Notes under the pieces: generated by a model
Database searches by the model: none
What the model saw: the letters and a program-made list of their open reading frames with translations, nothing else
What the model was told of the DNA's origin: nothing
Program-made: the position numbers and the translations under genes
Assembly (NCBI GenBank): GCA_037310415.1
Contig: CP147780.1
Span: 352,001 to 416,000, forward strand
Direction of reading: 5' to 3'
From: Candidatus Atabeyarchaeum deiterrae
Lineage (GTDB): Archaea > Asgardarchaeota > Atabeyarchaeia > Atabeyarchaeales > Atabeyarchaeaceae
DNA: 64,000 nt
Shown: positions 43,448 to 44,490 of the stretch, in pieces
How the letters are laid out: each line of letters begins with the position of its first letter
Position numbering within the stretch: position 1 is the first letter of the stretch

Positions 43448-44490
43448 ATGAAAGAAGCTAAGCTACCATATGACATAAAGAGAAGCTTTCGAGACAAATC
43501 TCATGATGTTACAGACGACAGATTTGGCTGCAATCCATCGAAACGTCCCATAGCTGAACATATCGACAAGGGCGTAATCAACTTGGACAAGCCAGCAGGC
43601 CCGACGAGTCACGAAGTGGTCGCCTGGGTAAAGAGGATATTTGGAATCGAGAAGGCTGGTCATGGCGGGACTCTAGAACTGACCATCGTTACCTGACACA
43701 TGTATGGCGGCAGAGTAATCCCCGAGTAACTGGTCTTCTGCCTGTAATGCTGAGTAACGCAACTAAACTCGTCCAAGCAATCTTGCCCGCAGGTAAGGAA
43801 TACATATGCATTATGAGGCTGCATAGCGACGTTTCGGACCAGGAACTAAAGGAAGTCTGTGAAGAGTTTGAAGGCCCGATACACCAAAGACCGCCTTTAA
43901 GATCTTCTGTCAAGCGCATCTCTCGCATTAGAACGATTTACTATCTTCAAGTTCTCGAGAGAGACGGCAGAGACATATTAATGAGGATTGGGTGCCAAGC
44001 GGGCACATACATAAGGAAACTCTGTCACGATATCGGTGAGGCCATCGGCGGTGGTGCTCACATGAAAGAATTAAGGAGAACCAGAACGGGGTCCCTAAGA
44101 GAAGATGAGTCCATGATGATCCTCCAAGACATTGTAGATGCAGTTCACTTCTGGAAGAACGATGGAAATGAAGACCCTGTTCGGAAGGTTGTCCGGCCTA
44201 TGGAGGAGGCAATTGAACACCTCCCAAAGATCATTATTCGAGATTCGGCGGTCGACGCGATATGTCACGGAGCTCAACTTGCAGCCCCTGGCATACTCAA
44301 GACCCATACTGGCATAGCAAAGAACGCCTTAATCGGAATCTTCACATTGAAAGGAGAAATCGTTGCGTTGGGACGGGCACAGCTTGATACGGAGAACATA
44401 ATCTCAGCTGATAAGGGTATAGTCGCTGCTATCGAACGCGTGATTATGGAACCGGGGGTATACCCAAAGCACGAAAAGCAGAACAGTTAA
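43448..44490 (+). CDS. cbf5: H/ACA pseudouridine synthase Cbf5, spliced: join(43448..43676,43718..44490), 333 aa
   Basis: [11 protein letters not shown] and KAGHGGTL in exon 1; [21 protein letters not shown] and PUA domain in exon 2; intron removal restores GTLDP. Confidence 0.93.
43677..43717 (+). other. 41-nt BHB-type pre-mRNA intron in cbf5
   Basis: GGGA-CTCT-AG^A...AGAG-TA^A-TCCC: 4-bp central helix, two 3-nt bulges, outer helix GGGA/TCCC; contains an in-frame TGA and shifts frame. Confidence 0.9.

Follow-up and report, generated by a model that had tools for sequence, protein, structure and literature searches.

Does the interrupted reading frame of cbf5 in Candidatus Atabeyarchaeum deiterrae mark a damaged gene, or a gene whose product depends on the splicing of its mRNA? 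The locus lies on the forward strand of the 64,000-nt stretch of DNA analysed here (the window), where its upstream neighbour in the ORF list is a 99-aa frame on the same strand that reads as ribosomal protein L14e (43018..43317). Exon 1 (43448..43676, +) comprises 76 codons and a G, the first base of the catalytic Asp codon, and matches the Pfam domain DKCLD (3.8e-19); its protein ends in ...EKAGHGGTL, followed by the lone G. Exon 2 (43718..44490, +) provides the AT of the Asp codon, 256 further codons and a stop at 44488-44490, opens with AT CCC CGA GTA ACT GGT and matches the Pfam domains TruB_N, TruB_C_2 and PUA. Between the G and the AT of this codon (G|AT) sits a phase 1 insert of 41 nt (43677..43717, +), a candidate BHB-type intron. 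Read through, the frame closes at 82 aa with the TGA at 43694-43696, and the other 256 codons are out of frame; joined, the exons form a 1002-nt ORF of 333 aa that reads ...AGHGGTL-D-PRVTG... and includes ...GHGGTLDPRVTG.... The predicted spliced junction is ACTCTAG|ATCCCCGA, and the predicted spliced sequence across the exons is ...GGGACTCTAG|ATCCCCGAG... A sequence-only reading of this DNA had described cbf5 as broken by a 41-nt BHB insert that splits G^AT and whose excision gives GTLDPRVTG and a 333-aa ORF, with a stop and a frameshift otherwise; its coordinates, helices and bulges all hold, and translation with and without the insert agrees with it both ways.

The protein evidence places the interruption to the residue. 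In a search of solved structures, exon 1 aligns with residues 10-81 of Pyrococcus abyssi Cbf5 (2AUS_C), ending in ...GHGGTL, and exon 2 with residues 83-332 (E 8.7e-94); the one residue absent between the two alignments is the Asp of the split codon. This Asp is the established catalytic residue of the TruB/Cbf5 motif (PMC2738675), and L-D-P is ungapped in 77 intron-less Cbf5 homologues. An alternative junction one base over, GA|...AA|T, yields an identical product, and the G|A...A|A junction is preferred because of BHB symmetry. No Rfam family matched in window positions 43300-44000. A repeated or mobile element was considered as well and rejected, as no further copy of the 41-nt insert was found in the 2.76-Mb genome.

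Both ends of the insert lie within a BHB motif that spans 43667..43722 (+) and is supported by the MFE fold and register analysis, by the RNAalifold consensus of 14 Asgard sequences and by pair counts. In the MFE fold, the outer helix pairs GGGA (43667-43670) with UCCC (43719-43722) and the central helix CUCU (43671-43674) with AGAG (43712-43715), the latter flanked on opposite strands by the 3-nt bulges AGA (43675-43677) and UAA (43716-43718). The cuts given by this geometry, AG|A after 43676 and UA|A after 43717, are those that the cbf5 frame requires, each lying two bases past the central helix, the symmetric point at which archaeal splicing endonuclease cleaves a BHB; in PMC2738675, too, cleavage falls behind the second of the bulge residues and before the third. 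The inner helix (43679-43681/43708-43710 and 43683-43689/43700-43707) is relaxed in the Atabeyarchaeum copy, where an A.C mismatch is followed by 3 bp, a bulged A and 7 bp, and is the weakest among the inserts compared, most relatives having a perfect or near-perfect one. Taken as a single sequence, its thermodynamic stability is unremarkable (z = -0.77 versus dinucleotide shuffles), and a slipped register with ACUCU:AGAGU and CGGG:CCCG reaches -31.4, as against -30.0 for the BHB-constrained fold, and is thus better by 1.4 kcal/mol.

Beyond the outer helix, the MFE and centroid structures extend the exon-exon pairing by 11 bp, between AGAAGGCUGGU (43650..43660, +) and ACUGGUCUUCU (43729..43739, +). 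These pairs show zero double changes among relatives and are therefore uninformative on selection. The codons for G-H (GGN CAY) and V-T (GUN ACN) that flank the catalytic motif are inherently complementary (window 43660-43672 and 43724-43735), a complementarity also found in alignment columns 5-12 and 75-82, and the exon-exon stem thus comes partly free from protein conservation. Such exon complementarity could help account for this site holding or attracting a BHB intron.

Comparison with relatives supports the motif. Locating inserts in relatives through a search with exon 2 and the distance from the end of exon 1 to the start of exon 2, we read 27 distinct same-site copies from Asgard and TACK genomes, all of which fit one BHB register and have a fully paired central helix (4/4 in 27/27). 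The exonic Thr/Leu codon bases covary with the 3' end of the intron, giving CUCU:AGAG, CUUU:GAAG, CACU:AGUG/GGUG, CCUU:AAGG and CCCU:GGGG, and the RNAalifold consensus of the 14 Asgard sequences is the BHB itself, with double-sided changes in 9 of its 20 pairs. Paired cells amount to 94.6%, where shuffles reach 84.1% (0/500) and slid partners 32-49%, and the covariation score is 0.461, compared with 0.250 in shuffles (0/500) and 0.11-0.16 with slid partners, in a set of sequences that are related to one another. The exon side of the motif leaves its mark on codon choice: the Leu codon is NUA in 27/27 intron-bearing genes against 14/77 intron-less ones, the Asp codon GAU in 25/27 against 29/77 and the preceding Gly codon GGG in 20/27 against 14/77, while the outer helix is fully paired (4/4) in 19/27 against 2/77; as the compared sequences amount to about 8 clades, these counts overstate independence, and all of the roughly 8 clades display the codon and helix pattern. 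Synonymous exon sites are constrained solely in the insert-bearing genes. Within the three Atabeyarchaeia genomes, the insert measures 41 nt each time and has diverged in sequence with the motif kept. Some relatives carry introns of 27 and 30 nt (e.g., L126:455-485 in G139, L011 and L029), multiples of three that cause no frameshift; the 27-nt copy still holds in-frame stops, and the Asp codon is split in all multiple-of-three cases.

The sequence-only reading had also suggested a survey of cbf5 across Asgard genomes, and the one carried out here covered 400 genomes of the phylum, each representing a species, of which 381 gave a cbf5 match. Among the matches listed, the Asp-site insert is present in at least 19 Asgard genomes from 5 families. 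Besides all three Atabeyarchaeia (3/3, 41 nt each), these are 6 genomes of family f18 (31-32 nt; including Jordarchaeum madagascariense, Jordarchaeia QZM_A3, Freyarchaeota SQRJ_82 and a closed 3.6-Mb genome), 5 of family f7 (27-35 nt; including Jordarchaeia QC4), 4 of family f15 (30-35 nt; including Borrarchaeum yapensis) and one Heimdall-labelled MAG (26 nt). The names rest on identical sequence or coordinates between named loci and those analysed here. Inserts of 11-42 nt occupy the same site in TACK MAGs assigned to Culexmicrobium, Bathyarchaeia and several Thermoprotei. In the largest Asgard family, f9, which was covered completely, the site is intact in 134 matching genomes, contig-edge fragments aside; it is also intact in ten representatives of further Asgard families, some of them closed (4.4 and 6.0 Mb), and cbf5 is intact in the Odin-, Wukong-, Asgardarchaeum- and Thor-named groups examined. 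Families f4, f21, f28, f13, f31, f16 and f20 were sampled in part. In-frame stops in two f13 genomes (G016 and G035) are just natural stop codons. In the otherwise intron-less, Thor-like family f6, one genome (G337) has a second cbf5 with an Asp-site insert of about 19 nt (L130, G337:C57:2670-3970), which, sitting on a 5.6-kb contig, is probably a mis-binned contig of another lineage. Four of the five intron-bearing Asgard groups coincide with those for which the heaviest load of tRNA introns is described, namely Freyrarchaeaceae, Jordiarchaeaceae, Atabeyarchaeia and Borrarchaeaceae (preprint 10.64898/2026.10.13.758758); the fifth is the Heimdall-labelled MAG.

The host genome is a closed chromosome of 2,756,679 bp in one contig with one cbf5, and the window occupies its positions 352001-416000. 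Another intact copy elsewhere, which the sequence-only reading had named as an observation that would count against it, is absent from this closed genome; a second, weak cbf5 hit falls in an open frame of 449 aa whose matching region marks it as Pus10-like. The genome is of Asgard type, as had been supposed, and its family also contains a sister genome, CP147779.1, Promethearchaeati archaeon SRVP18_Atabeyarchaeia-1, with 2.81 Mbp (PMC11291895). Two EndA paralogues are encoded, of 238 and 198 aa, both above the Pfam cut-off. The longer one has its best match in the Aeropyrum pernix catalytic subunit 3P1Z_B (1.9e-46), of the crenarchaeal heterotetramer type, and its alignment runs ungapped across the "Crenarchaea-specific loop", with the equivalent of Lys44 kept, and the shorter one reads as having no catalytic His. 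This pair has the features of a two-subunit EndA of crenarchaeal type, as predicted from sequence. The Crenarchaea-specific loop confers a broad substrate range (PMC3241643), and an (alpha-beta)2 EndA bearing the specificity loop has been described in Asgard archaea (PMC5829648). RtcB is encoded as well (582 bits).

We thus consider it very likely, at a probability of about 0.9, that the insert is removed by EndA/RtcB splicing, which would restore the catalytic Asp and a 333-aa Cbf5. Cleavage and ligation in the cell we infer from the comparative evidence and from the parallel with crenarchaeal cbf5, for which splicing was seen experimentally; contigs of four metatranscriptome runs gave zero coverage of the cbf5 stretch. 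The pre-mRNA would fold into an hBHBh' structure made of the BHB, the intron hairpin and the 11-bp exon-exon helix, a heterotetramer-type (alpha-beta)2 EndA would cut each 3-nt bulge behind its second base (43676 and 43717), and RtcB would join the exons, recreating the GAU of the catalytic aspartate in a mature mRNA that would encode active, 333-aa Cbf5. The excised intron would probably be circularised by RtcB. Left unspliced, the transcript would give nothing but an 82-aa fragment in which the catalytic residue is absent.

The closest known counterpart is the cbf5 intron of Crenarchaeota, reportedly found in Aeropyrum, Sulfolobales and Desulfurococcales, with Watanabe in 2002 and Yoshinari in 2006 as the names attached to it. 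According to the study of Yokobori 2009 (PMC2738675), it separates the first letter of the catalytic Asp codon from the second and occurs in Desulfurococcales and Sulfolobales alone; it is experimentally spliced (PMC2738675, PMC10485636), and a 2023 review describes it as confined to a small group of related archaea (PMC10485636). The earlier statement that cbf5 introns are known at this motif in Crenarchaeota is borne out, with site and phase equal (PMC2738675). Host gene, position, short length and the placing of the cuts, behind the second bulge residue and before the third, are alike in the two cases, as is an (alpha-beta)2 EndA that carries the specificity loop. In contrast, the crenarchaeal hosts are thermophiles, whereas Atabeyarchaeia are wetland-soil Asgard archaea outside Desulfurococcales and Sulfolobales; the crenarchaeal motifs are mostly unconventional (relaxed) in PMC2738675, whereas the copies read here mostly form a complete hBHBh'; and splicing was demonstrated there by cDNA, whereas here it is predicted. 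The cbf5 intron in Atabeyarchaeia is thus a known mechanism in a new host group. We found no published report of a cbf5 intron in Asgard archaea, nor, judging by titles and abstracts, one of an Asgard mRNA BHB intron; cbf5 is unmentioned in PMC11291895 and in preprint 10.64898/2026.10.13.758758.

Other BHB systems are related to it in different ways. Introns occur in 92-95% of the tRNA genes in the study of Atabeyarchaeia and Freyarchaeia (Valentin-Alvarado 2024, PMC11291895); they share genomes and lineages, the motif and presumably the enzymes with the cbf5 intron, which differs from them in lying in a protein-coding mRNA, where codons (G-T-L-D-P) make up the motif's exon halves and synonymous sites are therefore constrained. 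The mRNA intron of Haloferax volcanii HVO_1309 is cut by EndA (as reviewed in PMC10485636) and is likewise an archaeal mRNA BHB cut by the tRNA splicing endonuclease and then rejoined, in another gene, another lineage and with an alpha2 type of enzyme. Within the window, ARAGORN calls a sole tRNA in 64 kb, tRNA-Arg(TCT) (17225-17321, -), which at 97 nt is long enough for an intron; multi-intron tRNA genes may therefore be missed, as reported for the lineage. In eukaryotes, HAC1/XBP1 mRNA undergoes unconventional splicing by Ire1 and a tRNA ligase or RtcB, as a regulated stress switch. It resembles the cbf5 case in being protein-only mRNA splicing with two stem-loop cuts, a tRNA-type ligase and a changed reading frame, and differs in its endonuclease, Ire1, in its unrelated motif and in being regulated, nothing pointing to regulation for cbf5.

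Judged by its sequence, the cbf5 insert is one among several probable mRNA introns of this genome. The glyA gene is split by a 41-nt BHB-like insert (G000:C1 652709-652749, +; L135), with exon peptides that cover positions 4-54 and 56-399 of the SHMT profile, and valS by a 31-nt BHB-like insert (about 457150-457180, +; L136), with exon peptides at positions 2-73 and 74-414 of tRNA-synt_1; in both genes, the Pfam profile positions of the paired exon peptides abut exactly. A 41-nt insert splits gatE (2222226-2222266, -; L134), where the BHB pairs in 4/4, 4/4 and 7/8 positions, and one of 53 nt splits a radical-SAM gene (919007-919059, -; L133), in which splicing would restore CNLTCPWCQN. Phase 1 is common to the inserts of cbf5, glyA, gatE and the radical-SAM gene. 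A genome-wide search for motif and ORF geometry under a strict filter left cbf5 as the sole convincing case and dropped real cases, so that its outcome is no sign of absence; a second genome-wide filter gave 921 hits versus 924 with slid partners and has no power. Elsewhere in the Asgard phylum, cbf5 has a second intron site: ten genomes of family f12, genus g13, carry an insert of 40-43 nt after ...GIINLD and before KPPGPTSHE (L021:1370-1410 in G013; L115, L118, L119, L121, L122, L123, L131, L132 and L070), which is absent from three genomes of the same genus. It falls at residue 47/48 (window numbering), leaves the Asp codon intact and forms a relaxed motif, with a central helix CUGG:CCAG/CCGG/CUAG, 3-nt bulges AU|A (AC|A in one copy) and AA|A, a good intron helix and no adjacent exon-exon helix.

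Could the gene simply be dead, or the insert be an artefact of assembly or curation? The annotated frame is indeed broken, yet this is the sole copy of an essential gene in a closed genome, both of its exons are intact and highly conserved, and inserts at the same nucleotide recur, with compensatory changes, in independent assemblies of at least 19 Asgard genomes and many TACK MAGs. We give such an explanation practically no credence, as it is already contradicted by these comparative sequence data. Only slightly more room is left, and in our judgement very little, for the insert staying in the RNA, either with two separate polypeptides being made or with ribosomes bypassing it or shifting frame over it. 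An ATG at 43747 could begin a 247-aa C-terminal product, but, with its codon split, the catalytic Asp would be absent from both fragments; no fitting bypass or frameshift signal is known; what is conserved in the insert is the shape of an EndA substrate, neither a coding nor a slippery sequence; and the in-frame inserts of 27 and 30 nt in relatives retain stops. A different proposal takes splicing for granted and sees in it a regulatory switch, in which the activity of the splicing enzymes would set Cbf5 output and so couple pseudouridylation to tRNA and rRNA processing. That active enzyme would demand splicing and that the intron is kept in intron-rich lineages (preprint 10.64898/2026.10.13.758758) speak for it, but no observation in this analysis favours regulation and many Asgard lineages do without a cbf5 intron. 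Moreover, similar inserts interrupt conserved motifs in at least four other housekeeping genes here, glyA, valS, gatE and the radical-SAM gene, so that a role specific to cbf5 is unnecessary to explain the intron. We regard a switch as improbable, and EndA/RtcB splicing of a BHB intron as the preferred reading.

Where that intron came from is less clear-cut. On the Cbf5 tree, each intron-bearing family is resolved, deep nodes are unresolved and at least 8 changes of state are needed. Spread of an intron-bearing cbf5 by gene transfer as one clade failed the AU test (p-AU 0.0017), which makes it unlikely that the intron was gained once and the gene then spread laterally. Two scenarios remain: an old intron that was lost many times, or a single site at which introns were gained repeatedly. 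In favour of one ancient intron that predates the divergence of TACK and Asgard archaea and was inherited vertically, Crenarchaeota, Culexarchaeia-like genomes, Bathyarchaeia and five Asgard families all have it at one nucleotide position and in one phase, and no supported Asgard and TACK grouping of intron-bearing Cbf5 points to gene transfer. Suggestive only is the recurrence of an inner-helix start A-GCCCCU... in Jordarchaeia, Culexarchaeia-like and Thermoprotei copies, with GCCUCC and GCCACU in Frey- and Atabeyarchaeia. Against it stand the possible convergence of GC-rich stems, the very patchy distribution, with its at least 8 state changes, the rejection of a single clade of intron-bearing genes by the same test, the repeated gain of tRNA introns in these classes (preprint 10.64898/2026.10.13.758758) and the separate site at which a further Asgard genus has its cbf5 intron, which means that new gains do occur. 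On this evidence, vertical descent from one ancient intron is possible and somewhat doubtful. Its fullest form, a single very old intron present in the TACK/Asgard ancestor, and hence in the lineage of the eukaryotic host, that was kept over billions of years because its exon half is an invariant catalytic motif, we put forward tentatively, as a minority view.

In print, cbf5 is the textbook, and nearly the sole, archaeal protein-coding gene requiring splicing, and it has passed for an oddity of a handful of thermophilic Crenarchaeota. An intron at the same nucleotide in Atabeyarchaeia, Frey- and Jordarchaeia and Borrarchaeaceae would bring obligatory mRNA splicing by tRNA-splicing enzymes into the archaeal group nearest to eukaryotes, where its presence follows the lineages with very intron-rich tRNA genes. 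In these lineages, gene callers misannotate the essential Cbf5 as two fragments from which the catalytic residue is missing, and the codon constraints described here, NUA-G|AU and GGG...CCY, offer a search signature for more cases. The locus also poses an evolutionary question, that of one ancient intron versus the repeated capture of one site. If the former is true, then, together with the other interrupted housekeeping genes, it would mean that mRNA splicing by endonuclease and ligase is ancestral and routine in the closest archaeal relatives of eukaryotes.
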